Shown here: one piece after another, positions 3,001 to 45,429 of the stretch | How the letters are laid out: each line of letters begins with the position of its first letter | Position numbering within the stretch: position 1 is the stretch's first letter | Assembly (NCBI GenBank): GCA_036172245.1 | Contig: JAYWIR010000020.1 | Location: 186,001-250,000, forward strand | Reading direction: 5' to 3' | DNA length: 64,000 bases | Source of the DNA: Raillietiella orientalis | Taxonomy: Eukaryota | Made by a program: the position numbers and the translations under genes | The notes under the pieces: model-generated | What the model saw: the letters and a program-made list of their open reading frames with translations, nothing else | What the model was told of the DNA's origin: nothing | Databases searched by the model: none

Positions 3001-3947
3001 AAAGCGCAATATAAATCTTTCACATCGGCACGTACAGACGGCCGCGTCCAGCAGATGCTGGCTCGTATCGATTCACTTCAATTGCACGAAAAGTTACTAA
3101 TTCCTGCAATTCATCAGTCCGTTCCGAAAGATGCACATTCAGGGCGTAGCAGGGATGGCCGAGGAAGCTGCTCGTCTAGAAATCAGTGGAGATGAACAGC
3201 AAAGTAGCCAAGTTTCAGCTCTTAGGTATTTGTACCAACGTGAAAATACGGATGCCAGTCACTGATGCCGTGCAGAAACCTTCGCTGGCAAATTTGTGGG
3301 AAATTCCCATTTCCATTCTCCATTCCCATTTCTGATTTGGAAGAGATCTGGGACCGGAAGTGGGTTGCGACTCACTGTTTGAAAAACTCCCCGGGAAACA
3401 CGTGAAGAGTGGTTTCGATGGCGAAGTAGAAGAAAAATCGTATCCAAGCGACGCTGAACCAGCAGACTCTCGGAACCAGGTTTCGTGGCGGAGCTGCAAC
3501 CAAAAGGTTGTGTTTGGCAGCAGTTGCTGTTTTTGATCGTTTGAGCTCCGGCGAGAATCGCCTTTTTATCGCAATGAAGCAAAAATGATCTGAAGATCCC
3601 CAGGTATTGCGCAGCATAGGAAGCGGCACCACTTCTTGGAGAGGGGCAGGCCGTGCTTGCAAGTGTGGATGTCAACTAGAATCTGGGCATGCACCCGGAT
3701 TTCCCGCTGCCACAGCACCATTCCACCACAGAAGCACGACAATGTCACACCATCACATAACGTGTGCTTGGTATCTTAATTTTTTTAGAGGCCAGTGGCG
3801 ACCTCATGGGAGATCGTTACTATTGGCCAAGGATGGTGGGAACCCTTTTGGGTTCTTCAGCTTTCACTGCTTTCCCTCCAGCTTTTTTTTTGCTTCGGCA
3901 AGTGCTGAAGAACCATTCGCATCCTTGGAGGGGACTCACAGAGCCCA

Positions 3948-4537
3948 TTAAGCATTGTCCACGCCACCCGAAGGTGTATGCAACTCTTCAAGGTATAGGA
4001 GTAACCCCGAAGGGGCCACCGTATAAATCCAAGAAGGCTCCGTTCCTCTAACGCTCGGGAGGGAACCCAAGGGGAACCTCCTCCTTGTTGCTCTTCTGAA
4101 GAGGACTCCGAAGGGAAGTCACCCACTCACACAGCGACGTTCCCGCTTCCCAATTTTCTCCGAAAGGTCGCCTTGAAGAGTGCAGCGCACTTCTGAGCAC
4201 TCTGGAGAGGTATCAATCCACCAGCTCCATGGCACAAGATGGAGGGCCCTCCCCCGAGGGTGAAGGTACCTCCATTTTCATAACCGGAAGGGAACGGCTT
4301 CTTGATTCTCTGGAAGGATCCCGGAGGGTCCACTTCCAACCACGCAGCCGGTCCACGGGGGCATCTGGCTTCCACCAGTGCTGCACCCAGGGCCTGTCGG
4401 CCAGCCAGCGTTGTCCTGCGGGTAGGACTAGAAACCCAGGACACCCCCATTTCTGGGCGCTGATCCTTCCCCGGGTGGGATTCGAACCCGCAACGCTTGG
4501 TACCGCTAACGGAGCCACACGGCCGCCAACCCGGGCA
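3948..4537 (-). mobile_element. tRNA-derived SINE-like element, copy 1 (tRNA head plus modular hairpin body)
   Basis: Minus strand reads GCCCGGGTTGGCGGCCGTGTGG (A-box-like) ... GCGGGTTCGAATCCCAC (B-box/T-arm). The body is colinear with the copies at 9.6, 21.6, 25.5 and 27.9 kb. Shared plus-strand blocks include actcttcaag, cgttcctct, gcgcacttctg, cactctggaga, ccagctccat and tggaaggatcccggagggt. Confidence 0.85.
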
Positions 4538-5104
4538 GGGTGACCTTGAGATTTGAATGAGGTTGTATTGAAGCCGAGGAACGCTATGCCCCAAAGAGAA
4601 ATACTGATGGTACTTTCAGATATTCTTTCTAAAGACGGGGTTTAGCAATGGAGTGCTCCTTCCAAGATAGGAGCAGCTAGCCACTGTCAGCTCTTTTCAT
4701 CAGCAGCTTTCATCACCTTGCTCAGATCTGGGCGATGACCACATTTCTCATTCAGGACCATAGTTGGGCTCGTTATCGGAAAAAAGGTTTCTAGGAGCAG
4801 CGGGAAAATAAAAGGCGTGGTATGGGAAGGGAGCCTTTGGTTTTGGACGCACGCGTTCTTTTCTGGTTTTCCTCTTTAGCGATCTTGGCTGCCTCTTCCT
4901 ATTTTGTTACGCGGTCATCAGTCCCGAATTTCTTCGAGCACCATGCCGTGAAGACCAGCATGCGAGGACCTCGAACCACTTGTGAAGAGAATCCACAACG
5001 CAGAAGGGTGGGAAGGAAACCATTCGTGTTCCTGAGCTTCAGGCCTCGTGCAGTCGGTGCGGTTAGCGGTGCCTCGTGCAGAGAGTCAGCCCTGTCACTC
5101 CTTG

Positions 5105-5160
5105 AGTCTCCGCGCACTTGAACAAGCCGTCCTCCATCTGAGAGTTCGAATCCCGTCCCA
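5105..5160 (+). mobile_element. Possible isolated head fragment of the same SINE-like family
   Basis: gtctccgcgc...gagagttcgaatcccgtccc resembles the head (ggtctccgcgc...gcgggttcgaatcccgccc). No body follows. Confidence 0.35.
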
Positions 5161-6329
5161 ACTGTTGTACGCCTTGTCCGACACGACGATCATAATGACG
5201 GCACATTTGGCTCGCGCCAAATGACGACCCGTTTATCTAGTCTCTGGGATGAAACGCTTCCGGTGGATTCAATTGTGATAAACATTTGCAGCAAATAATT
5301 CGTTCTTCCTGAATAAAGTTGTCTCAGGAGAGATTACGGATGATTTATGCGGATAGACGAGCAATAAAAACATATTCCGCATCATTTCAGAGAGCATAAA
5401 CCAAAAATATGATCCTTGGAAGGAGAAGAATACGAGGGTGGCTCCCCATTTTCGATAGAGAGTTGCCTTCGTGTCGCGTAAGAAATTTCCATTATCTACA
5501 ACCGGAGTTTCGCCCGTTGCACTCTTTGATTTGCCTACCGGATTTTCCCGTTGGCGGTTTGCTGGAGCCTCGGTGGGAAACGCTCAATCGAATCTATTTT
5601 CTCAACGTCCTTCCTACTGCTCCAGAAACAGCAGCAGGACGAATGCTAAAAAAAATCCATCTTCACCTTTCCCGGGTGTTTACGGACCAAGGGGCGACTG
5701 GCTGTGGGACCCCACCGCTTAGGTCGAACGGCTGAGGGGTGTGGGCTGTTAGCGAGGCATCATCATCTTTCCAGTACAATGGCAGTGATCGCCAATTCCG
5801 AGTCGGTTGTCTTGTTCGTTCGATTTTTCGGCAGAAAGGGGAAGCTCGCCGCGTCGGAACTCTCAAAGAACCAACTAAGAAGAAGGCATACCGAGTCCGA
5901 GAAAAATTTTCGTTGACGTCCCCATGGCAGCAAAGCGTCCAGACGACTCATCTGCTCGTGATATGCTTGCTTGAGGGTTTCCAACAAATCAACTGATCTC
6001 GCTGTTCAAGTTTATCACATCCAACACGATGATTAGTCCCTTCTGGGGAGGAGGAATCAAACCCAGGCACCCTTATCCATTTTGTACGTGAGCTACCTCA
6101 TAATTGAAACCTGGAAACCTTTCCTCACGAGTTAGGGAGTGATCCGGAAAGATTAACCTAACCTAATCGACGCATCCGATCTCCAGAAATTTCTCACGTT
6201 TAAGGACCAAGAAAGGAAGAACAGATTGCCGGCTATCGGAAAGAGTTCCTCGACAGATAGCGCAGCTCCCGAAGAGGAATGTCTCTCACCATTGCGGTCC
6301 CGACATGTGACTGAGAAACGCGCGAGCGG

Positions 6330-6730
6330 TTTCAAGTTGTTGGGACCCGTCCAGAAGGCAAGCGAAGTTCAGCGGTAGCCGAGGAAAATCTCTCGAAATC
6401 TAAGATCCAAGAGCGGCGCCTCGCCGATCGCCAAGAGGATGAGAGTTCTGGGTCGAGGAGGAGGATCCCGCTCGATCTCCACGTCAGTCAAGAGGAAAAA
6501 GGTTTCCTGTCCATGCACGACGCTCAGGATCACCTCGAGGAGCGGGTCAGATGGAGTGGAAAGTTGCTGTCCTTTGAAAGGGCAGCAGCAGATTTGCCGA
6601 GGGGTTCGGCCTGCTTGATGCTTGGCACTTGGTACGGCTGAGGATGGATAAAGAAAAGGCGCAAGGGGTTACGCTCCTTCTGGTGCAACTCTGACCTCTG
6701 GAAACTTTGGGCGTCCGTAGCGAGCTTTCT
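6330..6730 (-). mobile_element. Decayed putative LINE ORF1-family remnant
   Basis: Interrupted translation PKFPEVRVAPEG...VILSVVHGQETFFLLTDVEIERDPPPR...SLAFWTGP. It matches motifs in the remnants at 56.9 kb (QDIFCSTVADDALVQRDPTSR), 38.6 kb (SIPFWDP) and 52 kb. Confidence 0.45.
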
Positions 6731-7099
6731 CACGTGGCGTACGCACATACGCGCGTGTGCGTGCGTGCAAGCGAACGCTCGATCTCCTCCCCCGAAGCGG
6801 CCCCGCGCAATCTCTTTGAGAAACTTGTCAGTGTGTGTTCGAGGTAATGAAGCGAAAGAGTTGTTCTGCTGGTTCGGGACCAGTCAGACAAATGGCGTAG
6901 GGATAGACTTGGGCGCCGTTCAAAGGAAACGCGGTGGCGGCGGGTTCCTGTCTCACTTTCATTCTGTGTACCGCGGGAACCAGCGGGAACGAACGCAGAC
7001 AGACAAAAAAAAAAAAACAAGGAAAAAAAAACAAAATCTGGGTAGGGCGACCCTTGCTGAACCCGACTGTGCGAATCCATTAGGTTCTCCCTGCGGAGG

Positions 7100-7420
7100 A
7101 GAGGGTGCTGTTCTGCAGCAACATCGTCCCCGTTTGGCGAAGCAGTTCTTCGTGGTCCCAAAACGCACCCACGTGGAGCGAGGGTTCGCTTTGCACCACC
7201 CGGACATTCACGGCGTCCATCAGAGCTACGAGGCTGTTCCTCGATCCCTCTCGGATACCCCGTGTGTGTCTGCGCTGCGGCAGGACGCTCTCCACGTCAA
7301 GTGCGGTATACCAAGAGGCCAGGAGGCTTTCCTACCGGATGACTCGGTGTCGGCACTTTCAGCAGTGGTAGATCTGGGGGGCATTCGCAGTCTTCACCGG
7401 AACTTCGAGACCATGCCTCC
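7100..7420 (+). mobile_element. Decayed putative LINE ORF1-family remnant
   Basis: ALHVKCGIPRGQEAFL (7287-7335) resembles VILSVVHGQETFF (6.5 kb) and LHTKSKCILREGFSF (17.6 kb). Confidence 0.35.
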
Positions 7421-9617
7421 TAGAAAGAAAGAAACCCGATGAGGAACTTTGTGAAACGGACATTTCCTTATCCTCCTCCCTGCTCCAAAACAGCAGCAAC
7501 GAGAGCACGTTCACTTGAGTGCATCCGAGTATGTCTTTCATTTTATGCCTCGGGCGCATCTGCGATTGCTTTTCGTCTGCCTGATTCTCTGTGTTATCAC
7601 CGACGTGACTTTCCCAAAAGATGTCTCACGGAACCGACACTCGAAGGCAAGGCCTCGAGTAGGACCTCATTGCCTCAAATCTCGAACGCCCGTACCGTGG
7701 GGGATGAAGCGACAGTTACGTGGATTTCGGTTCGATTAGGGACATCTTCAAGAGGCGATTTTCAAAATACTGCAAGATGCGGCGACGCGCACCGCATGCA
7801 CTGTGCAAGTGCTGCAGAGCAGGAAAAACTTTGAAACTGCGTCGCTGGGTTTCAGCATCACGAGTCTCGAACTTATGAACGACACCGAGAAAGAGAGAGA
7901 AATGAAAATAAAAGTGGGGGGGAGGGGGGAAGTACAAAGAACAATATGGAGAAGTAATGGAATGTTCCGGAATAGCACACAGATCGGTCGGTCGTTTCGT
8001 TTGAACTTTGGACGAAAGGGGGTCGGCATCCAAAGTCCATCAAAAGTTTGTTGGCAGTGGAATCCCATGGAAAAGCAAGGGCTCCATTCACGGAGGCGGG
8101 GCTCATCGCCTCTCATCTGCGCGAGAGAATCCGCACGGAAAGGCCAGTGAGAAGCTCCACCTGCGAGGCCGTCTTTGGAATGCTTCATCTCGTCAATCGT
8201 ATTAAGAAGGGATGTAATGGAATTTATTATCTTGTTATCCCGCGCTGGAAGTGACAAAACTCCTTTGGATTTGTTTATACACGAGATCTCCCACCTGCTC
8301 CTCGTCATAGGAGCAGCAGGAGGAACGGAATTCTCGCCAATGGTACTCGCTTTCCGAAGAGGTTGGCTCCCGCCGGAGGAGCCGCTGCCAAGCGGTAGAG
8401 CCACCCTATGAACGCTTGGCTTGCCTCCTTCTTGTCCTTAGTCGGACGTCAAAGATTACCAACAGTGAAGAGAGGGCCAAGTGAAAAAGGGGATCACGAT
8501 CGATATCAAGCCTACCGTAGAGTATGGGAGTATGGGAGAATGAAGCGCCTTCTCCTACACTTCCATCTTATTCATCTTCATGAATCCGTAATTTTGGGGG
8601 AGCGGAGTCTTTTTTGTTTTTGGTTTGTAGCTTTTCTTCCTTGCAATTGCGTGCTCATCCAGAAGAAACCCCGATGGTGTCCCAGGTTCTGCACTCTTCT
8701 CGGAAGGATTTCGATGGATCCTCGTCGTGTGACCATCAGCGTCTACGTCGGTCAGGGACGAACTGAGAGAGAGAGCGCACGCGTCTTCTAGACGGACAGG
8801 AGGCTACAAGACCTTCCTTCCGTGTCAAACTCGGGCAATTCATCTCCGATCTCGCGACATCGCAAGTTCACCATCCGGCGGGCGGCCGCTCGTCACTGCG
8901 GCGCTGGCGGTGCATGTCGAGCGCCCGCCGCCGGCCGTGAGCGAGTGCGTGGGAGGGGAGGAAGGCGAAAAGCCCCACGGCACGACGCAGTCGCGGACTA
9001 CGCGCTCCAGACGGAGTGCACGCGCGCACGCACCATCGCCACACACTGCTGCCCGTGGTATCCGTGCGGTGCTTTTTAGCCCGCAGGGTGGTCATCACTT
9101 TCGAAATCCATGCGCTCCCGAGGAGCGGGCGCAACGAACCTCCCCCATTCCTGTAAAGATCGTCTCGAAACCAGCCCGTGCCAGTTGTGGAAGGAAAGGA
9201 CTAAAGCCTAAGCATGAAACGCCCCCCCCCTTTCCCCCTCCCCACCCAGAAGGGAGGGGAAAGAGTGAGAAGCGTTCTTAGAGGGGCAAATTCATAAAAA
9301 TTAATGATTTGTGGATGAGAAGATCCTCATCCAATTAATAGGCAAATTAATAATAAATAATAAATATCCGGATTGTTGGGACTTATTGCACAGTCCTCGA
9401 GGAAGAATCTCTTGAGACTGACTGCGCAGAGCGGGTGCTGAGCCGAAGAGTCAATTCGCCCTCGCGGGCGATCGTTCCGTGGGCTGTCGGCGAGCGCCCT
9501 GCGCATGCCGTCGACTTCCGGCTTCCCGGCGCCAGGGAGAAGGGGATCTGCTGCCTTGCCGCCCCGAGAAAACGCTCGTCTGCACCGTGGGTCCGCAGCT
9601 TCCGCGCCTCTCGTCTC

Positions 9618-10297
9618 GCTCTTCAACGCTGCCCGCGGCACCAGAGGGTGCGTGATCACTCTTCAAGTTAGGAGGTGCCTCGAGAGGGGACCACCCTGTG
9701 GATCCAGGAAGCTCCGGAAGAAGCAGTCCGTTCCTCTTACGCTTGCTTTGGAACCCCGAGGGAAACCTCTTCCACATTCTCTCACGAGGAAGTCCCGTAA
9801 AGATCCAATCCTCGTTTCTTTTTCGAAGAGTGCCTAGAAAGAATCCTTTCCTGGATTTCTTCTCCGGAGGGAACCCTCAAGGAGACCACCTTGTTGATGC
9901 TTTTCTGAAGAGAACCCTGGAGGGACGCTTCCGAATTTCCCCGAAGGGAGCGGCGCGCTTCTGACACTATAGAGAGGCAAATTCCTGAAGGGGGTATCGG
10001 CCAGCTCCATCATACGGCTCCATTTTCACCACCGGAGGGGATCCCGAAGGGAACGGGCTCCTTATTTCTGGAGGGACCCCGGAGGGTGAAATCCCGATCT
10101 CGGCCAGTCAACGGGAGCAGCTGGAAACCGGTTGCTTCCACCCGAATGGACCAGCCAGCGTCGTCCTGCAGGGAAAGCAACCCGAAAACCCACGACGCAC
10201 CTATTTCTCGGCGCCGACCCTTCCTCGGGCGGGATTCGAACTTGCAATGCTTGGCACCGCGCGCGGAGGTTGCGACCACAAAGACTGCGACGCGGAC
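9618..10297 (-). mobile_element. tRNA-derived SINE-like element, copy 2 (longest)
   Basis: B-box AGTTCGAATCCCGC on the minus strand at about 10229-10242. Colinear body. Units recur at about 9668, 9703, 9742, 9782, 9822, 9863, 9904, 9939, 9969, 10031 and 10068. Confidence 0.85.
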
Positions 10298-13200
10298 TCC
10301 GTCTCGCTCTTGCGCCGCGCGACGGTACCTCCCCCGAGAAGGGTGAAGAACCACCGAATGTTCGCGGTGCCAATCGGCCGAATTCTCTTCGTTTCCCCTC
10401 CCAAGTACTTTTTCTGGAACCCTCAAACCGAGAGCGTTCTTACCGTTTCTCCAGTGGGAAAAGAAATTCAGAAATCGCCCGAATTCGTTTCAACTCCCTC
10501 TCCCGCCCCCCGTCTTTGGCCTTTAACCCACGAAAACACCGAACGCTGTTGCGTGCCTTCCTCTTTCCAAGTCATCTTCGGACCGCAGATCCGGGAATGG
10601 TAAGGAAATATGCCTCACTCGGCAGTTGACCGTACGAGAAGGCGGCGACGGAGCAGCTCTCTCTTCTCCCGACTTGCCCCGCGGCGCCGCGCGTCCGGGG
10701 GGCGCACAAAAGCACAAGCTCTTGCGCACCCTCGCCTTCTTTTTTCGAGAGGAATCGACGTGCGTGATGAACCCGGGTGCTCGGAAAGGCACCGCGAGCT
10801 CGGATGTGCGTGCGCGGCGACCCGATTGAGAGAAATTGCCGAACTCTTCCTGTTCCCTCCCGATTACCTTGAAAAAAAAAAAAGGGAAGGGGAAGGGGAA
10901 TCGAGACGCTACAGAATTATTCTGGGGAATCCTCTTGCAGCAGTGGGCACTGCGAGGACACTCACCGCCTGTTCTCCGGGGCTGCCGATTGCTCGCCCCT
11001 TTGCACCACCTGCGTCTTCCGCTCCGATCACACTTGGGAGGAGCCGGGCCCCATTTCGCTATAGGCAACGCAGAATTAGTCGAATTTTTTTATCTTTAAA
11101 TCTTTCAAACGAGAACTAAATATTCTACTAATGCTTTCGGGCATGCCCTGTGGTCGGCTGGTCGAGGGTCCGCTTGCCCCGCGCTTGACGGGTTTGCCTT
11201 CGGCTTCGAATGGAAGTGGCAGGGAATTTCCCATCACTTCCGTTCTGTGGTTCGGAAGAATCTACCCAAGGTCGGTGGAAGACGCGTCCACCCGGAATCT
11301 GCCTTCAGTCCCTCTCGGGAGCGAGCGGCGCTGCCGAAACAACCCTCTTCCGAACCCCCACCTCCTGGCGGCCGTTGCTTCCTCCCTCCCTCCTCCCCCG
11401 CTCCCACCGCTCCTACTGTGGCAGCCCTTCCTTCGCGGGATCCCCGACTTGCTCGCCTCCCGGAAGCAGCGGGTTAAGCGGGAGGGGGGTCCGGAGGCGA
11501 CGGCGTCTTCAGTGCACCCGAGGAAGAGTCTTTTCGCGCCACGGTTCCCTCCCGCCATCAGCGCATCCCGCTCCCTGAGTCACTCACTCAGGCGTCCGGG
11601 CGAGGGAGCAAGAGTGGCAGTACTAGCCACCGGGGCCGACTGCGGCGGGCGGGCGCAAACGAATAGCCTATCCAACGCAACCGTCAGACGCCCTCGGGGA
11701 CACTCCGATGCCTTCCGCTGGCTCTCGTCTTCGATCCCCCATACCAGCCTCTGTCCCTCCCGGGTCAGCAGAAGAAGTGGACCTCGAGGCTCTTCCGTGG
11801 GCCGCCGCCGAGGTTCCTGAACATTAACGGTGCGTCTTCAGAGGACTTTCAGTTCAGAAGGGAGCGAAGAGCGCTATTCCCGAGCACGCCTGGCCTGGGT
11901 TGCCAGGAAACGCTCGAGGTAGTGCGGAGCGCTCCTCGGGACTATCGTTTTTCCGCGAAGTCCGCTCGCCTCCAGCGCACTGCTGGGGTGCACTCCGGAA
12001 TGGATCAGGGTGTCCTCTCCAGCTGATTCTCCGACGGGTTCCTATTCTGGAACGCACCCTCCTCCGCCAGGCTCCCTTCCTGTGCCTCTGCCGAGCGGGT
12101 TCTCCCTCCAGGCCGCTTCCGCGTCATGCAGCATCCGCCGTCGCTGCGGGAGGGAGAGGAGAAAGTGGTCCGCGAGGCCACGTGCCCTGCGGCCAAAGGT
12201 AGGAGGAAACGGCGTCCACCTTGCTTCCGGTCTCGCTCGCGAGAGCGGCGCCATCGAGGTGGCCTTCCTCCTCCTCCTCCGGGGTCCGTTGCTTCCCTCC
12301 CGCCTCCTCTCTTCCCGTGGCAGCGCTTCCCCGCGGAAAGGGAGCCCGGAAAAGAAGCAGCTCTGTCCTCCCTCCCCACAGTCACCCCCACCTCACCCTC
12401 CTTACCTCCGGCGGGGACCTCAGCTCGGTTGCGGGCTGGAGCAGCGGGCCCTCGCTGCCGGGCAACTACTCCCGGGACTTCTGCATGCAAAGACTTCCGT
12501 CTCCTCTCCCCTCTGCGCATCGGACCCATTCGCATCGGATGCATTATTAAGGGTACCGCCCCCCCGCTTCCTCTTCCCTTCTTCCTCCTCCACTCCTTCC
12601 AGGGGGTGGAATCGGGAAACGGCGGCGGGAAGCTCCCCGGCATCCCAAGTCCTCCGCGGAATCGAAGTGGAAGCGCCGCCGCCGAGCGGGAGAGACCGAG
12701 GGAGGCAGCGCGGGCGCTCAGCAGCTTCCGCTCGGAGGGACCCGCAACGAAGTGCTGGGGCCAGCGCCGCTGGGAATGCCGCGGCGGCGGTGCGACACCG
12801 GCCCCTGCACGGATCCCCCCAGGAAGGATGGGGAGGGCGGGAGAAAAAGGTCCTCCCCTAGCTGCCGACCCCTCTGCGGGGGTAAGAACGTCAGGAGGAA
12901 GCGGATCGGAGGAGAGGATTTCCTTCGGGATGGTTCCCTTTTCGCTCCGGATGCGCCCGTGCATGTGCGCGCACCCCGTGGGGGGTTCCGAGGAGACCGC
13001 GTCCCGGCTTCATCTTCGAGTGGCGGCCGGGAAGGACGCGGTCTCTCTTTCAGGCGCGCCCATCCGCGACTGCGAGGCAGGCGGGGCATCCTGAATTGGT
13101 TTGCACCTAGGTTCTGCCGCTGGCGCGGGCCAACTGACTTTGGGAATTGCTCGGAAGCTTCTTCTGGAGGCCCCTCGGAGGACCGGTTCCCGGCCGGAGC

Positions 13201-16200: not shown

Positions 16201-16849
16201 GACCTTCCCAGATTTGGGGGGCGAGTCCTCTTAGAGCTGGAAATCTGGAACCGAAGGCAGGATGCAAAATAGACATCCAAGGGGCAGGGCGAGGCCAAGG
16301 ACGGAACTACACCGCGAGCTATACCGGCTGGAAAATCGGATTTGCATCTCCATGAAGGGAAGATGCACGATAACGGCACGTCTGGTCCACTGGTACATCC
16401 TCATCGACGTGGGGGTGGGTTCTGGCTTCCATTGACGCGTTCTCGACGGGAATTCCTTCGTTCCCTTCCCCTTCCGAAAACAATTAAGTGGTCCTGAAGA
16501 GCGGACCTAAGATGAGAATTTTCCATGCATGAATCCTTCAACGCACGGAAGACTCAAAGAACAAGAGGGATTGTCTGAGGAAACGACTAGGATCAACTGG
16601 ATCGATCCTCATCTCCATGAACCCGAACATCCGTCTGAAGAAAGACGGAAGCGTGGTACAGTGCTCCCGATGCAGCCAACTCCTATGGAAGGAAGGAAAG
16701 GAAAGGAAAAAGCGAGGGCTGGGAATCATTCGAAGGCAGCGAAGCTCTCCGCGGACAGCAGCGACCTGACAGACCGCATCGGCAAAGAGGGGAGGCAACG
16801 GGATGCTGGAAGCACACGCCATCCTGCCCTTCCGGCCAGTTCACTCGGA

Positions 16850-17900
16850 GCACTATGGCACGGAGGAAAATCCTACTGTACAATCTCGTTTGGTACTTGT
16901 AATAGAGCTCCAGGAAATTTTCCTAGAACATCTAGCACAACCAACAAATTCCCACCATCCGCTGCTCCTATTGGCGGGGCAACTGCTCGCTCCCAGGATG
17001 CATCTCCTCCACGTGTCCCGGTTGAGCTGGATGCTGGGCACGCATCGCATTCCTCTCCATGCTTCCACCATTGAAGGAGGCTCCAAGTTTTCTGAGCGCC
17101 TCGGTCTTTGGGTCCCGAGCTGCCAGACATCCCACCACCCGTGCTCTTACTGAGGCTTCCCCTCTGCTCTTTCTGCCGGTGAGCAAGAATAAGGACCTCT
17201 GCACCAGCTTCGTCTTTTCTTCGGGCAATTTCGTGCATGGCGACTCTACTCTTCGTTCCGAAGCACCGATTTCCACAAAGTCTTAGGTTCATCTCCAGTA
17301 TTGGATGGCTCGAGGGTCACCAGCTTCCCATTTTCCCTGAGTCCTCTCGCTGATTTGGTTGACCAGGAGGCAAGACGACCAACTGGTTGAGATCCAGATC
17401 TTCTTGTCGAGGACTCTTCCCACATCAAGCACCTCTCGTCCATTCGGATCCTCGTAGCTCCAAGAGCGGGGCCGAGGTGGCGTGAGAAGGAGCGCGCTCG
17501 AGTTGCGTAGTAACCAGACATGCCGTTTCCAAGGAACGGCTGGCCGTTTTCGAGTCTCCCGAACATGGCAAACTCTTCGCGCGTGCTCGTCAGCTACCGG
17601 AACGACGTGCTGGAAGCTGCTGCGCCTTCACACGAAATCAAAATGCATCCTGCGGGAGGGATTTTCCTTCAGCCTGTCACGGTGATGGGTGGACCAGCAT
17701 CGATGTTGAGCCCGGGATGCTGAGCCCCTGAGGAAAGGGGCACTGGATACGGGTGTGCCAGGATGACGCCACAATCGACCGGACGGTCGAACCGTCGATA
17801 CTGCGGAAACGGCGGCGGGCAATCCTTTTTTTTGATTTCGCAACCCGCCCTTGAACTCTGACACACGGCAAGTGGTTTGACCACATCCGAATTTACTCCA
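16850..17900 (+). mobile_element. Decayed putative LINE ORF1-family remnant
   Basis: Frameshifted motifs LLHVSRL, GDSTL..KHRFPQ...IGWLEG, KCILREG and IDVE, plus a knuckle-like cacacggcaagtggtttgaccacatc (about 17861-17886). They occur in the same order as in 51230-52450. Confidence 0.5.
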
Positions 17901-20900
17901 CAGGCTGGCCTCCGTTTGGTTATTCGCAGCTTCTTCCTGCGAATTTTTTTTCCCCGTGAGTGGTGGCTGCATCTCGGCATGAACAACGTGTTCGAGGAAG
18001 GGAGGAGCCAACGTGTCTTGCCCTTTCGGGCTCCTTCCGTCCCTCAACAAAGTCCGACGGCCGTCACCTCGCGTAAATCAGTGCCGTCGAGCAGCAGCAG
18101 CGGTGTTCCTGCTTGTTCGAAGCCAGGAAAACGGGGAACAAAAAAAAATGCTGCCAATTGGTGGTTTCCTTCCTTCGCTTCCTCCGAGTCAAGTGCCCAC
18201 ATTGCCCAGGGAACAGTGACTTTCGGGGGCCACGGGCGTCATCTGGCCTCTCGTGCTGTCCAGATGACGAGTAACGAAATCTTTTTTACGCATCTTCGAG
18301 TCGCTCGTTCAGTCAAAGGTCACATACACAGTCTTTCCCTCCCCACAACCTCCTTCTCACTGTCCCTTCCAAGCCACGGACGGAAGGAAGGAACGGCACC
18401 GCCGCGTCTCTTGGTGCCACGGTGAGGCATCCTCTCCTTCTCGCCCTTGAAAATGGTGCTTCCGGAAAAAAAGAGGAAAAGACGATTCGGCGAAACTCCC
18501 CTCCCCGGTCGTTCAGCTCGTCTGCGCAGGATGGGAAAGCTCGGGGAAGATCCGCACGAGTCAGGCGGCAGCATCGGATGGTTTCCACGTAGAGGAGCGG
18601 TTGTGCCGGACTGCAAGAGAAGGCAACTCGGCTCAGTTCTCCAAATCCATAATCTCATGCTCCGCCTTGCTGCCTCCATTTACGCCGATAGACGTTCGCG
18701 TGCTGCGCCACGCGAATCCACCCATTTCTCGCAGCATCGATCAATTCCGGCTGCACGGTCGTCTTCGTCACGTGACGGTAATGGGATGAAATTAGCTTGC
18801 AGGCTGCATTTCGGTCCTCCAAGACGGGTGTGAGTTCCAAAAAGGGGTGGGTGGGGGAGAGGAGGGGAAGGGAAACGTGGATTGTGTTTTACTCGACCAT
18901 ATAAGTGCCAATTACTCGGGAGCAATTAAATTATGCATATTCATGGATATTTTATTCCAGCTTTCTCCTACTACGCCCTTTGCATCTGATCTGCCCGGAA
19001 AAAAGAAAGTTCCTTTTTTTTTGGCTCTTTCCGCTTCGCTCACTTGGAACCAGAAGAGTCGAATTAATTGATCGCGCACTGCATATGAAAATAATTCAAT
19101 GAGGTTCGAGTGCGCCCGCCCGTCGAAGGGAAGACGCGCTGGAAGCACCGTCGTTCTGTGAGCTCCCCCTTGCCTCCGAGTTTTGCTGCTGCCTCACACA
19201 CGGGTTCTTTCCTCGCGTGAGGATCGCCCGGCGGAACGAAGAGCCGCAGGAAGCGCTCAGGCGGAGGCTCCCTGGGTCGAAGACGACGGAGCCGTCGTTC
19301 GAGCTTGGGTGCTCCTCTTCGGCTGATCCAGGGGGTGGAGGGGACGATGGGCCTCCTCGAAGAGCGACGGATATATCCTCGAGCTGCCGACTGCTCGGAC
19401 AGAAAAACGACGACTCCAGCGAGGTGGAGTGGACCTCCCCCCAGCACCCGCTTTCTTATCGGAACCTGAGAAGGGATGGTGGTGCTGCTGCCCCCTCCGC
19501 AAGCGAACCCGCCCGCCCGTCACCCGCGCGCGGCAACAAATCCGACCAGCCAATTCCGTGAGCCAGGAGCTGGCAGGAAGCCTAGCCACCGCTACACACG
19601 CGTGCAGGAGAGAGAGAGAGATGCCGGATACAACCCCCGGAGTGGGGCGTGCGGCGAGAGGAGGACCGCGGAAACCTTCCGAACCTTATCCACACGAACA
19701 ATCTTCCGCCGAGATTTTTTTCCGATTTTCCAGAAGAGCGGAACGCGCGCTAATTGAGGAATGGCCGCGCCGGGTACCCGGCAGCTACCGGCATGCCCCT
19801 GAGCTTAGCGCCGGGGAGCAGCAGGAGCGCCAGCTTTTCCCGATAACGGCGACGACAACGAGGAGATGGAAGTTCGACCGCAGCATCCCTCCTTCCTCCC
19901 CCAGTGCACCACCACGTCCCGAGAAAGAGGATAAACAAGCGTTCCGGAAAATTAGGGAGAGGGAGGATCTCGGAGGAGGAAAATTCGCGTTTGCAGATAG
20001 CAGTGGGAGTGGAGGCTGGCGGATTCCCCCTCGGCCGGGAAAGAAGTGGAGCAGCGAGCCGAGAGGCGGAGGGCGTCAAGGACGGGGAGTGTCTCCGCTC
20101 GTTTCCAGGCCACGGGACTTCTCGGCAAAAAGGCAGCGGCGCGGCTCTCGGGCGTTTGCGATCGGGCGCTCCGTAGCAACCGGGAAAGAGCACCGCGAAG
20201 TGCATCGGTGCCACCGGAAGCTCGAGGACAAGGCTGAGGGAAGACACAGCGAGGAGGACCAGCCTTCGGAGCAATCGCTGTCTCTGCGGAGACCGGGAGG
20301 TTCCGAGAGGGCAAAAGCGTGAGCCCATCTCTCCGATGACGGAAGGTTCTAGGAGGAAAAAACGCGACCTACCAAGGTGAACACCTTCAGAGATTCCTTG
20401 GAAACGCTTCGTCGCCGCTTTCTAGGAAACTCCAACCGAAAATCGATAATTTGGGAGGGAAGGAGGGAAGGAAGCTCCCCATTCGGAGTCTCGAACTTGG
20501 CCCATTGGGGGCGCTGTCCAGAGCCTACGAACCGAGGAACCGAGGAATAACCGAGGAACTTTCGCATTCCCTGGATACTGAAGGATGAGGTTTTTTTGCG
20601 CTCAGTGGGCAACCTTGGCCGTTTGGCGTTCCCTCCATCGAGAGGGACAGCGGCAAGGGGGTCGCTCCGCTGTTTGGTCTTCAAGCATTTGGGGAGGGCG
20701 GCACCCGGAAAGTAGGGACGAGTAAGCAACGAGCGAGCTGTCCCCCCCCCCCCCCCCCTTCACCACTTCTGAAAAGTGCAACATCTCGCTCTTCTCTCGG
20801 AAGGTCCGGAGGAAGGGCAAGGAGCGGACGGGGAACGATCCTTCGCCCCGAGGGCACTTGCCAGCACGGGCACGGCGAAGGAACCAACGGGCCGAGGGAG

Positions 20901-21551
20901 AGACACGCAGCCGTGCTGCCAGCTGGCGCCAGTTGCTCCAAGCTGCTCACCCTGCCGAAGCGCGGAAGGGGAGGAGCCGCCGAGTGGCTTCCGACAGCCG
21001 ACAACGAGGCTGCCAGAGGTGGGCGGGTTCCCCTCACACTGGCCTGCCATTCGGGTGCGGACGCGAATCCGCCTCTCTCCACATCCGTGGCAGCTCCGAA
21101 CGCTGCGAGGAGACGAACGTGCGGAAGAATCGATGAATGCAGCTTCTCCGCTCGTCCGAAAGGCTGCCTCGAGTAGTACCGGTTCCTCCCTCCTCCCTCG
21201 CCTCCCTCCTTTTCTCCTCCTGTGCGCACCGGAGGACACCTAGGAGTCGCTCACGTCCTCGCATTCCATGCGATCTTCTCCGCACCGTCACCGACAGTTT
21301 CGGGATGCGGGAAGAGGTGAGATCGCGATGAGGTTTCGCGGACAAGAGGATTCTTTCTCAGAGGGGAAGAGATGGAAGCGATGCCTGGGGGGGAAGGGGC
21401 TTCTCCTCGGTAATTCCCAAGGGCTGAGCTTTCTGCGCCGAGGAGTAGGTCGCTCTGCAGCCTTCGAACTTCCAGGAGGAACTGTTTTCGGAAAAGCACA
21501 AGGAGGACGCAAGGAGAGGAAACGATGGAAGGGTTCGGAAGATTGGGAAGC

Positions 21552-22164
21552 TGAGCGCGCACGAGTCGAGTAATCGGGATGGGACCAAACCATGAATCCA
21601 TGAAGGACTCAGGAGGAAGCAGTACGTTCCTCTCACGCTTGGGAGGCAACCCGACGGAGGCCTCCCTCATTTTTCCTCCGGAGGGAACCCGCCAGGGACC
21701 GCTCCTTGTTGGTACTCATCTGAAGAGTACCCCGAAGGGATACTTCCCAATTTTCTCTGAAAGGTCGCTCCCGAAGGGAGAAGCGCACTTCTAAACACTC
21801 TGGAGAAATATCAACCATCTCCATGATACTCGATGAAGGGTTTCCCCTCGGAAGGGGAGAGGGGAGGGGACGGCTCCATTTTCTCAACCAGAGTGGAGCC
21901 CCCAAGGAAACCGATTCCTTGATTCCTGGAAGAATCCGGAGGTTCAACTTCCAATCCCGCCCACTCAACGGGGCATCCAGTTTCCAGCTGCTTCCACCAG
22001 TGCCGCACACGAATAGAACAACCAACATCATCTTGCCGGGAAGGGAACCCGAAACCCACTACGCACCAATTTCTCCGCGTCGACCGTTTCCCGGACGGGA
22101 TTCGAACCCTCGACACTCGCTAGAACGCGCGAAGCTCGCAGCCACGTGGCCTCCAAAGTGGGAG
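21552..22164 (-). mobile_element. tRNA-derived SINE-like element, copy 3
   Basis: GAGGGTTCGAATCCCGT B-box on the minus strand at about 22095-22111. Colinear body (catgaatcca, cgttcctctcacgc, ccccgaaggga, gcgcacttct, cactctggaga). Confidence 0.85.
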
Positions 22165-25100
22165 TAGGAATGGTTCCCGATGGCAGGCTCAGGGTGGTGA
22201 ACACGAGGATGCGCCAAGTCGCCATAAGCAAGTGTCACGCGGCGTGGAAGCGCTCTCAAGCTGGGACACGTGGTTGAAAATCCCGGAAGACCACCATCAG
22301 ACCGAAACCACCCCAGAGACATCGAAGCCGAAACGCGAAAAGACAGAGGTGGAACGCAGTAATGCAAAGTGGTCCTCCTACGAAATCAAGGAAGGCCCCG
22401 TGGGACCAAGAGAAGCCATTTTGGAAGTCCGCTCCGATGTGCTTCATCTCTTCCAGGAACAGCCGAGTGTGAAATGAGGGAGAGAAGATGCACATCGTGA
22501 GCCCAAACCTGCGAAAAAGAATTCCGAACACAACAAGGAGCACTTTTCTGTTACTTCTGGGAACAATAGACCCATTTTGGGAGCACTTAAAGGTATCGTT
22601 GGAGGCAGATCGACTCCTTCAAGGCACTGAGAGCATCGGGTGTGATGTGAAGGGATTTTATGAGGAACGGGGTCCACTTGGAAGCTTGAGTGGTCTGAGA
22701 TAAAATGCGGTCCTCAATTGTTGTGGCTGGAGTCCAGCAAAAAGGAAACAGAAAATCCAGAGAGCAGAGGTGAGCCAGTGATCCCAGTCTGTTTCCCCGC
22801 ACTAAGCCTGGAGTATTGACCTTTAGTCGTGCGTTTGGGACTAAGACGGGGTCAATCTTTTGGGCTAAGGCAAAAAATTGCCTAATAGGAGTTACCTGAA
22901 TCCGGTAACCAAGCAACCCGAAGAGCAAATCAAAAAGCAACAGGGAGGACGTTGTTAAAAATGAAACCAAGTGTTCGCCACGCTTGACAGCACTGTTTTC
23001 GATCGAATAGGTTTGCAATTTATCCCTACAAACACCTAGTAGCTAATTCAATTGAAAATCTTAACAGCATTACAAATTGTATTGCCATTTATAATCCTTC
23101 TTGCCAACATTTCCCTTCACGATACTCTGATCATTGGATACCAACACTATTTTTCTTAGAACACCCAGGAAAATAAATGAATCGGTATGAATACGTGGTA
23201 GCTACATCCTTCTATAGATTAGCATGATGCTCGGAATACGATACAGTTATTATCACATGATGCATTAGCAAATCAGCAAAGTATCACATAATGCGATGGT
23301 GAACGCATGCAACTGACGCAAACACATAGTAATGCATATGAATGACTATCACTTGTTTTCAGTTCATGCCAGTTCCCTGTCTGTAAACCGAGAATCTCAA
23401 GCGCTGAAGATGTGAGAAATTTCGAGAGCTCCTTTCGAATCGAAAGGAGATCTCGAATAAACCATCGGTAAATAAATAAATTTACCATCGGTAAATCATG
23501 GTAAGGTGAAGTTTTCCGAGGTCTCCCTTCCCGTCCTCGACTACACTATTGCCCTTGAGCAAGGCTGGGAAGGTGGACGGTGAAAGGGAAAGAAGGCAGC
23601 GACCAAGTGCAGTCGTCGAATCTGTCAATAAAAAGCGGTTGCCGCAGTGACGCTCTGTGCAGTTGGTCGATGGTTCTATGAAATATTGAAGAGGTGCTTC
23701 TGATGTTGGTTGGTGTTGATCTCTCGTCCACACTGCGATTTCGTTCGGGAGCAGGGATGAGCTATCTCCGGTTCTGGCTATGTGTGTGTCTCATGGAGAT
23801 ACGCATCATCCATCGTTATCTTTAAAAAAGGCTTTAACGGGGATCAGCATGCAAACTCAGCGGACAGCGTGCGCTCCGGAAGTGCGGAATTGAAAGATAG
23901 AAAAAGGTTTACTTGCTCGCTGAGCTTTCATCTGATTCAGAACTTCTTCCCAATCGATTCAAGGTAGGACGGGTGCTCCTCGAACCTCCATCGCTGCAAT
24001 GTCCAATCGAAGATTAAGAACAGCTACAAGAAAAACAAAAACACAATGCTTTATCTCGAGGGATCTGAGCCGTTCGTGCTGAGAAGGGGAGCTTCGCTGA
24101 ATTTCGCTCCGCGGGCTGCTTAGGCTCGCTGGGTGGTGCTGCTTGCCACGAGGACGCCGTTCTTTTCCGCAAGGCGAGCGCCAGACGTGAGCTTATCGCA
24201 ACGGCAGTAGCAGAAACGACGGTCAAAGAAGACGCGTGTCACTGAGAGACCGAGCCCACTTTCCTCCTCCCACCCCATCCCGACGGCAGATGGCACGGGT
24301 TCTCACTGTCCCACCAATACCACAACACTCGCACAGGAGCAGCACAAATGGATATCGGCGCAGGCATTTCCTCAAGCATCCAGATTAAGAAGTGGATGAG
24401 GAAAGTGCTTCTCCGATGCAGAGATCTTGGCGGTCCTGTCGTCAAAGCGAGAAATCTTCCCTCCCCCCCCCCCTCCCTTCTCAGAATTCTCTTGCACTTT
24501 CGGAACGGACGTCCTTTGCATTTGCTGATACGCGAAATTGAAAACGAACCACGGACCGTTTGATGAAGAAGGGTAGTCCCAAAGATTACTACGAAATACT
24601 CCTAGTTTCACGAAAAGGAAAGTGCACCGATGGGTGCCATAAACAAAAATCAGAAGCTCCCACTGTGTCGAGGTTCCCGTTTATCCCGCGCTGCTTGGGT
24701 ACCCCGAAGGCTTTGAAAAAATGGTAACCTAAGCGATCTCATCTTGGGGGCTTAATAAGTAGTTTACGCATCTGCTCTCTCGTCGCAATCCCCACAGTGC
24801 TTTTTAGATACTGAAAGGAATTCTTTTAACGTACCCCATGAGATGCACCCAGGAGACGGTTTCCCCCCCTACTCTGCCTGCTTTTGTGCATCCTCTCAAT
24901 CTATCTGCCTCCTAATCGCATGGAGTACGGGTCCACATGGTTTACGACTGGAAATGCAGCCGAAAAAGATTGCCCCTCATCCCCTGCTATCTTATACCGT
25001 GCCCATCCCTCCTAAGAGAGGAAGGCTTCCACATCTGGGAAAACGTTATCCCGGATGATCATGCCATCCCACAGCCACGATCCAAAGGTTCTCGTTTCAC

Positions 25101-25483
25101 CAACATCATCCACCATTTGTTTCTCCATCTTCTCCTTCTCCCTCTTTACCTTGCAGTATTCGTGCGAAGGACATGTTTAAATCCAACGCCCCATTTCCTG
25201 CCTACTCCATTCTCTTCAAGAGGAGAGGATGGTCTAGAGAGACCGCTAGTTCGTGATGAGTAGGGCGTGTCTGCCTCCAGAGAAGGTCAAATCTCCAGCT
25301 CTGACACTCTTTTACAGTCCCTCTCCGATCTACAGGAATAATTTCCCTACCCCCGGAACGAGCGACGAGCAGAAGGGGTATTCCCTTCTTTCGGATCCTC
25401 GCTGAGGTTTCGGGTTTTCCTTTTTTTTTTGGTTCTCCGAGTGCTGAGGATCGTTCGCCTCCCCAGGGGAGGAGGACTCGCAA

Positions 25484-26114
25484 AGCTCTTTAACAGTTCA
25501 CGCCACTCAGGAGTGCGCGTGACTCTTCAAGTTAGGGGGGGAACCCGGAGGGACCATCCTATGAATCCAGGAAGGCGCCGGAGGAAGGAGTTCGTTCCTC
25601 TTATTCTTGGTAGGGAACCCTGAAGAGGACCCCATCATAGTTGCCAGAAGGGGACTCCGCTTCTGAAATTTCTCCTCCGGAGGGAACCTTGAAGGGAATT
25701 GCTCCTTGTTTGCTCCTCTGAGGAGAACCCCAAAGAGACTCTTCCCAGTTTTTCTGAAGAGCACCTTCCCGACGGAAGCAGCGCACTCCTGACACTCTGG
25801 AGAAGCATTCAACCAGCTCCATGGTACACGATGGAGGGCAATTCGATTTTACAACCGGAGGAGAACCGGCTCCTTGATTTCTGGAAGGACCCCGGAGGGT
25901 CAACTCCCAATCCCTGCCGGTCAACGTTGGCATCCGGCTTCCACTGGTTCCGCACCCGAATTTCTATAAGGCCAACCAGCGCCATCCTGCAGGGAAGGGA
26001 CTCGAAATCCACAACGCGCCCATTTCTCGGAGTCCATCTTCCACTTGGGGATTGGAACCCGCAACTCTTGGCACTGAGCGCGGAGACCGTAGCCACGCGG
26101 CCGCCAACGTGGGC
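25484..26114 (-). mobile_element. tRNA-derived SINE-like element, copy 4
   Basis: Head GCCCACGTTGGCGGCCGCGTGGCTACGGTC...GCGGGTTCCAATCCC, with a D-arm-like GGCCG/CGGTC pairing. Units at about 25533, 25566, 25607, 25643, 25676, 25718, 25752, 25796, 25854 and 25880. Confidence 0.85.
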
Positions 26115-27924
26115 TCAGCGCCTCCTCAGGGGGCACTCACGAAGGGAATCCTTGCCTCGGTTGTCTCTGAAGAAAGCCCCGAAGGACCCCTGTCTGCTTT
26201 AGGTTCCAATTGGTCTTTCGGAAGCACACCAAATATCCGTGTATGCGGGTCACGTCTCTGAGGCTTCGCTTCTGAGGCTCGGCTTCCCATGGAGGCTCGG
26301 CGAGATCCCTCTGGTTCGACCGCCGGAAGGTTCTTGGCTGCAGCTGCAAGTGGTCGAAGATTGGACAGCGTGTGACTTCTAGAATCTGCTGGAGGTCGTA
26401 TCTCGACTGCTCAAACTCGAATCAGTCCCTTCGAATGTCCCCGTGACGCAACACCGGAAGCATCTGGTCCACCGAACACCGAAGTTTCGAGCTCTCTGTG
26501 GTTCAAAAGGTGGTTCCTTGGATGTGGTTCGAAACGTGGATGGATGTCAACTTTCGTCTCTGTCCACTTTTAGCTTTCCCTCAGGCCGTCGCACTCGGTC
26601 AGCAGGCTGGGAATCGGCCCTTTCCTGTTTGATCCGAACAAAGCAGGCGGTGCTTCCTCTCCGCGAAACCTCCAACACGCCCCAGCTGCCTTGCATCGGT
26701 CAGGAAGAGTCTCCCGGACTACCGGAGTCTCGTCTCCTGGGAGACAGCTAGCGAAGGAGCTTACGCTCTCAAGCGTTGCCACCCTCACCTCCGCAGGATT
26801 CCCTTCGAATTTGCGTGTTGTGTCCAGCAGCGACGGATGCACATGGAAGACCGTGCAGGTACGAGGGTAATGCAGAGCTGGAGAGTACTGGCACCGTCTC
26901 GTGACTCATTGCAGCATCCCGGAAGTGGGGGGGCGAGGGGAGGGAGAACCTCAAAGTTCGATCGAATCAGAAAGGAAGCAGTGGCAAAACTCATAAAATC
27001 AGGACCGGCGTCGAAACTCTGCTGGTGCGCTGTTGCGGCACCGAGGCATTCGAACAAAGGGCTACTGGCGAAGAACTTTTCGTCTCCCAAAGAGACTTTT
27101 TTCGCTTTTTTTTTTTTGGCCATCAGCTGGTTCCTCGGATCCGGAAAGAGTTCTATTGATTCTCCTGTCTTCGAGAAGACGCAATAAGTGCGTACAAGCT
27201 ATGAACAGATGAGAACAGTAGATCTGAGTTTGTAACATATTAATCTTACTAATGGCCTAGGGTTATTGGAGCTGAAGATGCACTAATGGAAGAGGGTACG
27301 AACCGTATTGCAATAAAGTGTGAAGGGGGTGACTGCCTAGCATCCTAGTCCAGTGACGATTACTACGGATGCGAGAAGGCCTTTTTCTTTTTTACAGAAT
27401 AAAGTAAAGCACAGTGGGGCTGAAGAATGCAAGAAAGGGCGAAAACAAGACAGATGAACAGCGTCGATGTGGATGCAGCTGCGTACTCGATGAGAAAGAT
27501 GCGGATGCATGGCGTGAATGGAGAGGTTTTTTTGAAGTAAGAATGAATTAAGGCATGCAGAAAATGGTCCCGTCGTCGGACCTGAAGATTAGTGGTTGCA
27601 AGGATGATCGGGCGGCGAGCGGAGATGGCTAACAAATCATATCGTTGGCTTCGAGGATCTTCATCGAGAAGAAGGCTCTTTGCTTCAGAAGGGTTCCCCC
27701 CCCCCTTTTTTTCCAGTAAAGACGAAGTGTTTGTGAAGATGAAGTACCTTGGTATGAATAATATTGGCACGAAGTCTCAGAAGAAACATCGCTTGATAGT
27801 TGCCACAAGGACGGAAGAGCTCGACTCGTGTGAACCAACGACGGCATCTCCATCAAGGGGAAAGACTGGCCGACAGTGGAATGGCACTTGTCTTCACCGA
27901 AGAACGACGGACTGAGGAAGAGTG

Positions 27925-28560
27925 TGCTCGTGTCGGAGGTCATGTGGTCATGGTCTCCGCGCGTGGCTCCAAGCGTCGCCGGTTCGAACACTTCGAAATG
28001 AATCGACGCAGTGCGCCGTGAGTTCGAGTTCCTCCTCCCACAAGATGACGCTGGTTGGTCTACATTCATTCGGGTGCGGCACTGATAGCGGTTCAAACAG
28101 GATGCCCCCCGATGAGGTCCGGAACAATGGGAGTCGACCCTCCGGGTTCTTCCAGGAAACAGAATCAAGGAGTGCGGTTCCCTTTGCTGTTCCCCTCCGG
28201 TTGTGCGAAGGAGCGAACCCCACCCCTTCGGAGGGGATCCTCCGTCTCGTACCATGGAGTAGGTGTGTTACCTCTCCAGAGAGCAGAGAAGCGTACCGCT
28301 CCCTTCGGGGAGCGCCCTTCTGAAAAATTTCGGTAGCGTCCATTTAGGGTTCCCTTCAGAGGAGTTAACAGGAGCAGTTCCTTTGCGGGTTTCCTCCGGA
28401 GAAAGAAACCCCTCCAGGAGTCCCTCCGGAGATAATAAGAAAGGAGATTCCCTTCGAGTTGCCTTCCCCAGGCGTGAGAGGAACGGACTCCCTTCTATGG
28501 AGCCCTTCCTGGATTCATAGGGTGGTCCCCTCCCGGGTATCCCCTATCTTTAAGAATTGA
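27925..28560 (+). mobile_element. tRNA-derived SINE-like element, copy 5 (opposite orientation)
   Basis: ggtctccgcgcg..ccaagcgtcgccggttcgaa head, then gagttcgagttcc, gaccctccgggttcttccagg, ccatggag, cctctccagaga, ctcccttcggggag and ggattcatagggtggtccc. This is the reverse complement of the other four copies. Confidence 0.85.
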
Positions 28561-45320: not shown

Positions 45321-45429
45321 TCCTGCGAGAAGCAGCAGTGCAGCGACTCGATTCTTACCCGGGTGCGCCGGGGCGTTCATTCTCTCGAATAAGACTTTTG
45401 CAGAATCTGTGGCTGGACCAATGATCCAC

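Follow-up and report, generated by a model that had tools for sequence, protein, structure and literature searches.

The stretch of the Raillietiella orientalis genome analysed here, 64,000 nt long and hereafter called the window, carries five colinear copies of a short interspersed element (SINE), labelled 1 to 5, four on the minus strand and one on the plus strand. Each copy has a tRNA-like head with a B box and is 83-86% identical to the consensus of its family, in agreement with the five tRNA-headed copies that a first-pass annotation of the window had proposed. The length of 590-680 bp given in that annotation proved too short. The element is about 870 nt long, and copy 1 extends to about position 3780, where, some 110 bases past an internal A tract, it closes with a terminal hairpin and a poly(A), while copies 2-5 stop early and are truncated at their 3' ends. 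Table 1 compiles the positions, including those of a site at which a long interspersed element, LINE-A, enters other members of the family; in copy 2 this target is deleted. Half of the duplication that flanks copy 2 is SINE-derived, which is the pattern expected for internal priming. A coding role found no support, as none of 139 reading frames (picked within 1-30,500 at a G+C content below 56%, from 672 frames of at least 60 amino acids) matched Pfam.

Table 1. The five SINE copies and their parts, in coordinates of the 64,000-nt Raillietiella orientalis window.
Feature	Position	Strand	Remarks
Copy 1, complete SINE	3780..4536	-	Consensus 1-867, 86% identical; poly(A) 3780-3786
Copy 1, tRNA-related head	4466..4536	-	B box 4479-4488
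Copy 1, empty LINE-A target site	4375..4391	+	LINE-A enters antisense to the SINE, consensus 171/172
Copy 1, hairpin-unit array	3996..4336	-	Shortened through unit loss
Copy 1, internal A tract	3883..3891	-	Frequent 3' end point among other copies
Copy 1, terminal hairpin	3790..3828	-	In the family, T run and poly(A) follow; T run decayed in copy 1
Copy 2	9618..10297	-	3' truncation at position 697 of the consensus; identity 83%; B box at 10233-10242; unit array 9671-10094
12-bp perfect direct repeat, copy 2 3' end	9612..9623		Half is SINE sequence
Partner of the 12-bp repeat, copy 2 5' side	10300..10311		Target-site duplication
Copy 3	21567..22163	-	3' truncation close to position 640 of the consensus; identity 86%; B box at 22099-22108; unit array 21570-21951; LINE-A target 21997-22013, empty
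Copy 4	25421..26114	-	Stops within the A tract; identity 85%; B box at 26050-26059, one change; unit array 25535-25907; LINE-A target 25944-25960, empty
Copy 5	27926..28558	+	3' truncation close to position 659 of the consensus; identity 83%; B box at 27981-27990; unit array 28130-28544; LINE-A target ~28069-28085, empty

At first look, two DNA searches of the 210-Mb genome returned 3,678 and 4,749 candidates of the family, dispersed over many contigs, the best other copies being merely about 72% identical to the query; at no more than one mismatch, a 28-mer gave 113 matches and its control gave none. Twenty evenly spaced 10-kb stretches of three large contigs contained 15 matches in 200 kb, 10 of them headed, which cover 3.9% of the bases. 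Several thousand to about 10,000 copies is a fair range, the upper figure holding if the spread is uniform, with the LINE-rich contigs left out of the sample. The search for a master or a young copy covered 68 near-full copies found by similarity and 25 further copies picked solely by a perfect 28-nt head. The former are on average 82.4% identical to the consensus (best 85.5%) and 71% to one another, and the latter are 83.7% identical to the consensus (best 87.7%). None of these 93 copies is young; a master copy elsewhere in the genome is possible. The tree is star-like, with internal branches totalling 0.83 against 12.3 for the tips and with 3 of 65 nodes supported above 0.95. The family is old and apparently dead. 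Dating through the duplications around LINE-A was too noisy, with 95 mismatches in 280 positions and variable lengths.

The consensus, which reaches about 950 nt when optional blocks are included, consists of the head (1-78), a unique segment, an array of units (about 215-740), the A tract, a short tail, the terminal hairpin, a T run, which is the sole run of four T in the consensus, and the poly(A). In gapped alignments with tRNAs of the same genome, the head is 66% identical to tRNA-Asn(GTT) over 79 columns and 64% identical to tRNA-Arg(CCT) over 78; 30 of the 62 tRNA matches were compared, and both tRNAs are candidates for the parent. By their general likeness, the tRNAs of the genome resemble those of animals. 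ARAGORN reported no tRNA in the window, in 12 loci or in the consensus. In one locus (L112, about 1300-1372), a tRNA gene, alanine-like by eye, lies just upstream of a SINE copy that is missing the start of its own head. The 5' ends are sharp, since 142 of 239 matches begin within the first 50 model positions.

Of 326 10-mers, the B box has been conserved best, with 47 changes where 103 were expected (a score of 0.46, the next region having 0.50). The same holds for 35 heads found regardless of SINE sequence, where 25 of 284 B-box positions are changed compared with 418 of 2636 others (8.8% against 15.9%, p 0.001). Such conservation fits either a diversity of sources all needing the box or a use by the host after insertion. 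The A box is one mismatch off its consensus and is not conserved above background (61 mismatches in 347). Because the B box is the best-kept 10-mer and a single T run lies at the very end, an internal promoter for RNA polymerase III (Pol III) is likely.

The 3' ends are variable. Among 87 ends not selected for a tail (one locus being counted twice), 24 fall at the A tract, 25 at positions 810-839 and 11 at the true end. Target-site duplications above the control threshold flank 5 of 14 complete copies, compared with 4.7% of swapped controls, and in a wider set a duplication is detectable in 4 of 62 copies; many duplications would have decayed at the age of the family. Neither terminal inverted repeats nor fixed flanking bases were found around the copies. 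Rfam 15 gave two matches in window positions 3000-30000 and five in eight loci, all far below the gathering threshold.

The body of the element is an array of 12-13 units (13 with the optional blocks counted) of 38-49 nt, which are 47-77% identical to one another, with a pairwise mean of 60%. The periodicity that had been noticed in the window was confirmed: along the consensus body, autocorrelation has its peaks at lags 39-43 (z 2.6-3.1), and a 10-nt hairpin core occurs 8 times at no more than one mismatch, compared with a mean of 0.27 and a maximum of 2 in 200 dinucleotide shuffles. Outside the element this core is rare (0.2 per 10 kb). The array is not a tandem satellite, as Tandem Repeats Finder reports no array in the copies and the units are too different to have been homogenised. 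Each unit is closer to its counterpart in other copies than to its neighbours, and the units diverged before the family was amplified, as had been proposed.

In each consensus unit, a bulge or internal loop separates the outer stem from an inner C/G stem that is capped by a loop of four bases, and the A-rich linkers between units are predicted to be single-stranded. The eleven canonical loops comprise four TTCG, four TCCG, two CTCG and one TTGC, so that ten of them follow the pattern YNCG, and loops of this type are stable. The CCC-TTCG-GGG centre that had been described for many units forms, in its exact form, the loop of 4 of the 13 consensus units and occurs 1, 2, 2, 0 and 1 times in the five window copies. 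As a whole, the array folds mildly better than its shuffles, with z -2.4 for the sense and -2.2 for the antisense strand of the consensus and z from +0.8 to -2.3 in the window copies.

The evidence that the hairpins were kept comes from the differences between units. A fixed window was taken before and after each core, and the pairing energy of each unit's own arms was compared with that of arms permuted among the units. Own arms pair at -8.49 kcal/mol compared with -6.25 +/- 0.53 kcal/mol for permuted arms, and none of 20,000 permutations was as low. The outer stems vary jointly between units (for instance GGAG/CTCC, GAAG/CTTC, TAGGG/CCCTA and CACGC/GCGTG). The pyrimidine run pairs specifically with the purine run upstream of it; the pairing with the downstream purines suggested in the first-pass annotation, which belong to the next unit, was not supported (p 0.84). 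The own-arm signal holds in all five window sizes and all four leave-out sets (p 0.0001-0.04), simulated neutral decay from a single ancestral unit attains the energy observed in no more than 0.3% of runs, and the test was repeated on the consensus of 14 independently chosen copies. These results indicate that the structure was kept in the source genes while the family replicated.

Once inserted, the copies behave differently. In the 68 near-full copies, the divergence of paired and unpaired sites is the same (0.173 vs 0.173), and 46% of double changes are compensated, compared with 45% in permutations. Counting pairs in 32 copies gives 81.5% paired compared with 81.4% in shuffled data, and 189 of 500 shuffles have a covariation score as high as the real one. 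The TTCG loops decay near the rate expected from their context (observed over expected, 29/32, 26/38 and 34/33). Inserted copies thus decay regardless of pairing, and the structure was kept in the source and not in the copies. The row of stem-loops envisaged in the first-pass annotation describes the source transcript, where units covary; a constraint on structure in the dispersed copies was not supported, and the covariation that it proposed to look for was found between source units and not across genomic copies.

The same annotation held that each unit keeps its identity and position across copies. The order is indeed fixed, but the content is not, as eight optional blocks are missing from 11 to 36 of the 68 copies. 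The 352 deletions of at least 6 nt fold better than random segments (-8.5 vs -5.9 kcal/mol), 20% of them have a microhomology of at least 3 nt compared with 6.5% of random segments, and several excise exactly one hairpin or one 40-43-nt unit. The states of the blocks assort freely among themselves and with two inherited types of head, and no subfamilies were found by block state. The number of deletions does not follow the age of the copy (rho 0.17, p 0.17), so the deletions could not be timed. A second common base is present in 77 of 596 columns, where simulation predicts 30, and linkage beyond 15 nt is at the level of independence (r2 0.016-0.021, with 0.015 expected). We infer from this pattern many source genes, recurrent skipping of hairpins and a swapping of templates; part of the mosaic is equally well accounted for by hot sites that mutate recurrently.

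The SINE is itself a target. LINE-A was collected by taking as query the 3' end of a LINE that lies within one SINE copy, and 30 of the loci returned were used. At 26 of them the LINE adjoins the SINE, in antisense, and at 21 it does so exactly at position 171 of the consensus; once the query and three duplicates are set aside, 26 independent loci remain, of which 22 adjoin the SINE, 18 exactly at that position. LINE-A thus uses one fixed site of the SINE as its landing pad. It is present in 3 of the 25 copies selected by their heads and in none of the five window copies. One locus (L138) holds a full-length LINE-A of 5.16 kb with a 17-bp duplication and remnants of an endonuclease and a reverse transcriptase (RT), the former as weak Exo_endo_phos matches in broken frames and the latter as similarity to intact relatives, in agreement with a layout of ORF1 and an ORF2 that encodes both enzymes. 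For two other LINE families of the genome, homologue searches returned domain sets of the L1/Tx1 type and no clade name. LINE-A appears to be of the L1/Tx1 type and is a candidate Tx1-clade LINE. In one locus (L124, 1866-2125 in the orientation used here), two LINEs of different subfamilies stand in tandem at the same SINE site with a target duplication between them.

Two further LINEs were considered as SINE-specific and rejected. About 33 of 39 LINE-B ends adjoin the same short motif, and just 9 of the 39 enter the SINE, all at position 818; genome-wide, LINE-B follows this motif of 7-10 bp, which coincides with the cluster of SINE 3' ends near 820. In the flanks of this cluster, LINE sequence lies within 1.2 kb in 11 of 27 cases and not in the other 16, and priming of SINE RNA at cuts in the LINE-B motif is possible, if weakly supported. 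As for LINE-C, 4 of 39 matches lie at four different sites, and the threshold was also passed by 48 of 300 random pieces. By eye, the first 70 bases past the LINE end in 7 of 39 LINE-C 3' flanks (L248, L256, L259, L266, L271, L272 and L274) have one other sequence in common, and LINE-C may prefer a different repeat as its target. We also considered whether SINE-LINE chimeras, seen in 7 of 50 downstream flanks, were template-switch fusions, and discarded this idea, as duplications lie on either side of the LINEs and, beyond them, the SINE tail often continues. Inverted pairs of near-identical LINEs occur 8-65 kb apart (L006/L011, L126/L127, L111/L112 and L114/L117/L123); in two of these pairs the LINE parts match closely and the SINE flanks differ, which suggests conversion or inversion between inverted LINEs.

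In comparison with known systems, the element works like a tRNA SINE of relaxed type and differs in its length, its covarying bulged hairpins and its dedicated LINE. SINEBase defines a SINE as an interspersed, non-tandem element of less than 1 kb with at least 100 copies and a tRNA likeness of at least 60% identity across 60 nt or more (PMC3531059), and the family falls within this definition in length, dispersal, copy number and tRNA identity, although it is longer than the limit of 700 bp that the same paper also quotes. It shares with the tRNA SINEs of that account the tRNA-related head, a body whose origin is not known, and the A-rich tail. It departs from them in being about 870 nt long, compared with 75-662 nt across the 175 families described there, in having copies that are 5'-intact and mostly 3'-truncated, and in that a structured array of units takes up about half of its length. 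There is also a precedent for such a body in the quasi-oligomeric SINE CHRS, in which a degenerate motif is present more than 10 times and variants differ in unit number (PMC3531059), and the suggestion that the window holds an undescribed kind of system was not sustained. Like CHRS, the present element has more than ten degenerate units in variable number; the CHRS unit is about 20 nt, and the accessible text mentions no hairpins or covariation for it, a comparison by description and not by sequence. Short internal duplications within SINEs are cited as well in the portion of PMC10702118 that was available.

Target-specific LINEs of the Tx1 clade, as listed in the available part of PMC4494074, include Tx1 in Tx1D, Tx1-Mar in Mariner-N4_AMi, Tx1-9_AMi in Harbinger elements, and Keno, Kibi and Koshi. 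LINE-A resembles them as a LINE of the apurinic endonuclease and RT (APE-RT) kind that enters another repeat at one set position, in one orientation, and is flanked by a duplication of some 10-17 bp, and its 22 of 26 independent loci exceed the limit of 20% of flanks in one target used in that work. The targets named there are DNA transposons, elements with long terminal repeats, small nuclear RNA and 5S genes, satellites and microsatellites, whereas the target of LINE-A is a SINE. The truncated copies recall the tailless retropseudogenes and internally primed Alu monomers of which the accessible sections of PMC5322556 treat, in being 5'-intact, cut short at defined internal positions and probably primed internally; they differ from those cases in their hot spots, an A tract and a site that coincides with a 7-bp target motif of a LINE subfamily, and in the small number of duplications that support priming. 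In the literature within reach, which excluded most subscription papers, we found no description of the present family, of a SINE body of covarying hairpins or of a LINE with a SINE as its target. Retroposed or non-coding RNAs are also known to carry arrays of units that are GC-rich or fold into hairpins, namely in the variable number tandem repeat (VNTR) of SVA and in the A-repeat of XIST, both of them Pol II transcripts; the likeness is one of arrays only, and no sequence relation is claimed.

According to our analysis, the best explanation, to which we give a probability of about 60%, is that of a long tRNA-derived SINE whose hairpins were kept during replication, whose copies are decaying and which offers one landing site to a LINE. 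Under this explanation, source genes would have been transcribed by Pol III from the internal promoter into an RNA of about 870 nt, and proteins of an L1/Tx1-type LINE would have copied it into DNA, beginning at the poly(A) or, in more cases, at internal points such as the A tract and position ~820, leaving thousands of copies with intact 5' and variable 3' ends. The body would have arisen through tandem duplication of a unit of about 42 nt, each unit being held during replication as a bulged hairpin, mostly with a YNCG loop, between A-rich linkers, and the most likely cause of the covariation would be selection on the SINE RNA for its own stability or for capture by LINE proteins. Hairpins and units were dropped or swapped independently, presumably by a polymerase skipping at hairpins and by template switching between SINE RNAs, giving mosaic copies that then decay irrespective of pairing. 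One LINE subfamily has adopted one site of the SINE because the family is abundant and dispensable.

Several observations weigh against this account. No source gene was seen among the 93 copies. Within the array, the copies have a slight surplus of paired cells (4115 vs 4086 +/- 11, p 0.01), and pairs changed on both sides number 33 where 26.8 were expected (23 of 500 shuffles). The covariation signal falls to p 0.04 when the three most distinct units are left out; unit boundaries were set by the analyst, homology being used for two of the 13 units, and the replicate consensus, for which the first one served as the alignment reference, differs from it at just 7 of 790 positions. Related units share some compensated changes, so that the independent events are fewer than the units (about 6-7 by eye), and G-U pairs favour the sense strand weakly (10 vs 3). 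Duplications were found in none of 14 copies ending at the A tract, in 2 of 14 ending near 820 and in none of 8 shorter ones, and in 20 LINE loci no 3' sequence common to the SINE and its partner LINE was found.

The covariation could have arisen in DNA, with the hairpins perfected by template switching during replication (quasi-palindrome correction) and no selection on the RNA. Template switching can create and repair stems, according to the available part of bioRxiv 10.1101/2021.04.15.439925, and it would suit the two units with long perfect C/G stems, the similar folding energies of the two DNA strands (-98.4 vs -101.7) and the small surplus of double changes in the copies. However, within one and the same genome this sequence retained its stems during replication but sheds pairing at the neutral rate after insertion, the source units having lost none over a larger divergence, which argues against template switching as the main cause; moreover, inner and outer stems are compensated while the internal loops and bulges between them remain, and a loop is inverted in 1 of 476 cases in the copies and in none in the source. 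We regard this origin as rather unlikely. Slightly harder to credit is a host Pol III RNA, past or present, that displays about thirteen hairpins as a multivalent scaffold for proteins and of which the dispersed copies are retrocopies. Strong covariation at the level of units, the predominance of YNCG loops, the single terminal T run and a B box at about half its expected divergence would all agree with such an RNA, but the kept B box follows equally if all active sources needed it, and the low best identities in both sets of copies leave the conserved master unfound. The number and content of units vary freely, and the excess of columns with a second common base suggests many diverse sources and not one gene; Rfam gave no match above chance.

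Two other possibilities concern what the hairpins are for. If they act in single-stranded DNA, the family could be a non-autonomous DNA element; most copies lack a detectable target-site duplication, and on the antisense strand, 8 of the 10 YNCG units would fold into C-GNA-G mini-hairpins. The tRNA head, B box, T run, poly(A) and duplications of complete copies, together with the lack of terminal inverted repeats and of fixed flanking bases, make this very improbable. The suggestion in the first-pass annotation that the transcript is a precursor cut into unit-length RNAs of about 40 nt appears the least probable of all: regular units joined by linkers predicted to be single-stranded would lend themselves to such processing, but the units are dissimilar in sequence and length, their stems are short and interrupted, and the ends of copies cluster at the A tract, at ~820 and at the true end, not at unit boundaries.

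Returning to the retroposon whose hairpins were kept during replication, a bolder and only tentative extension, which we think improbable as a whole, is that selection shaped the source RNA into a modular array, with some thirteen bulged YNCG hairpins, whose multivalency lets it bind many copies of one protein (the ORF1 protein of a LINE or a host factor), with units swapped between transcripts by template switching. A retroposon, or a host RNA behind it, would then have evolved the architecture of a repeated aptamer, the B box would perhaps still be held by the host, and the SINE would have as its dedicated user a LINE of the group by which it was probably mobilised.

The bodies of SINEs are mostly of unknown origin and function. 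In the present family, the paralogous units provide an internal test, since structure was kept between units in the replicating lineage and is lost at the neutral rate in the insertions; this contrast between source and copies separates selection on RNA from the repair of DNA palindromes and needs no other species. The present analysis contributes this contrast and the genome-wide counts. If it is true that the hairpins bind protein, the element would be a natural RNA of repeated hairpins that evolved within a retroposon. By landing on a single base of the SINE, LINE-A brings a SINE among the targets of target-specific retrotransposition and supplies a defined pair of endonuclease and target. 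The age and apparent death of the family limit direct tests.

Other repeats accompany these elements. The window contains decayed fragments of L1/Tx1-type LINEs, direct and inverted (42925-43227, 45357-50925 and 55226-56501), which are 57-70% identical mutually and to LINE-A, have their 3' ends outside the SINE and include a weak zf-RVT match at 48024-48902. Tandem arrays of near-intact LINEs of a second family, with 27% protein identity to LINE-A, occur on small contigs and in some regions (L146-L150). The RT frame of one of them (L147, 1-909) is 73% identical to a metagenome protein (P0121), so this LINE lineage has a close relative outside the genome studied. The window also has an inverted repeat of 83 bp (32813-32895 and 33145-33227), 84% complementary with a separation of about 250 bp, and two short imperfect palindromes at 23421-23457 (37 bp) and 55475-55518 (44 bp).

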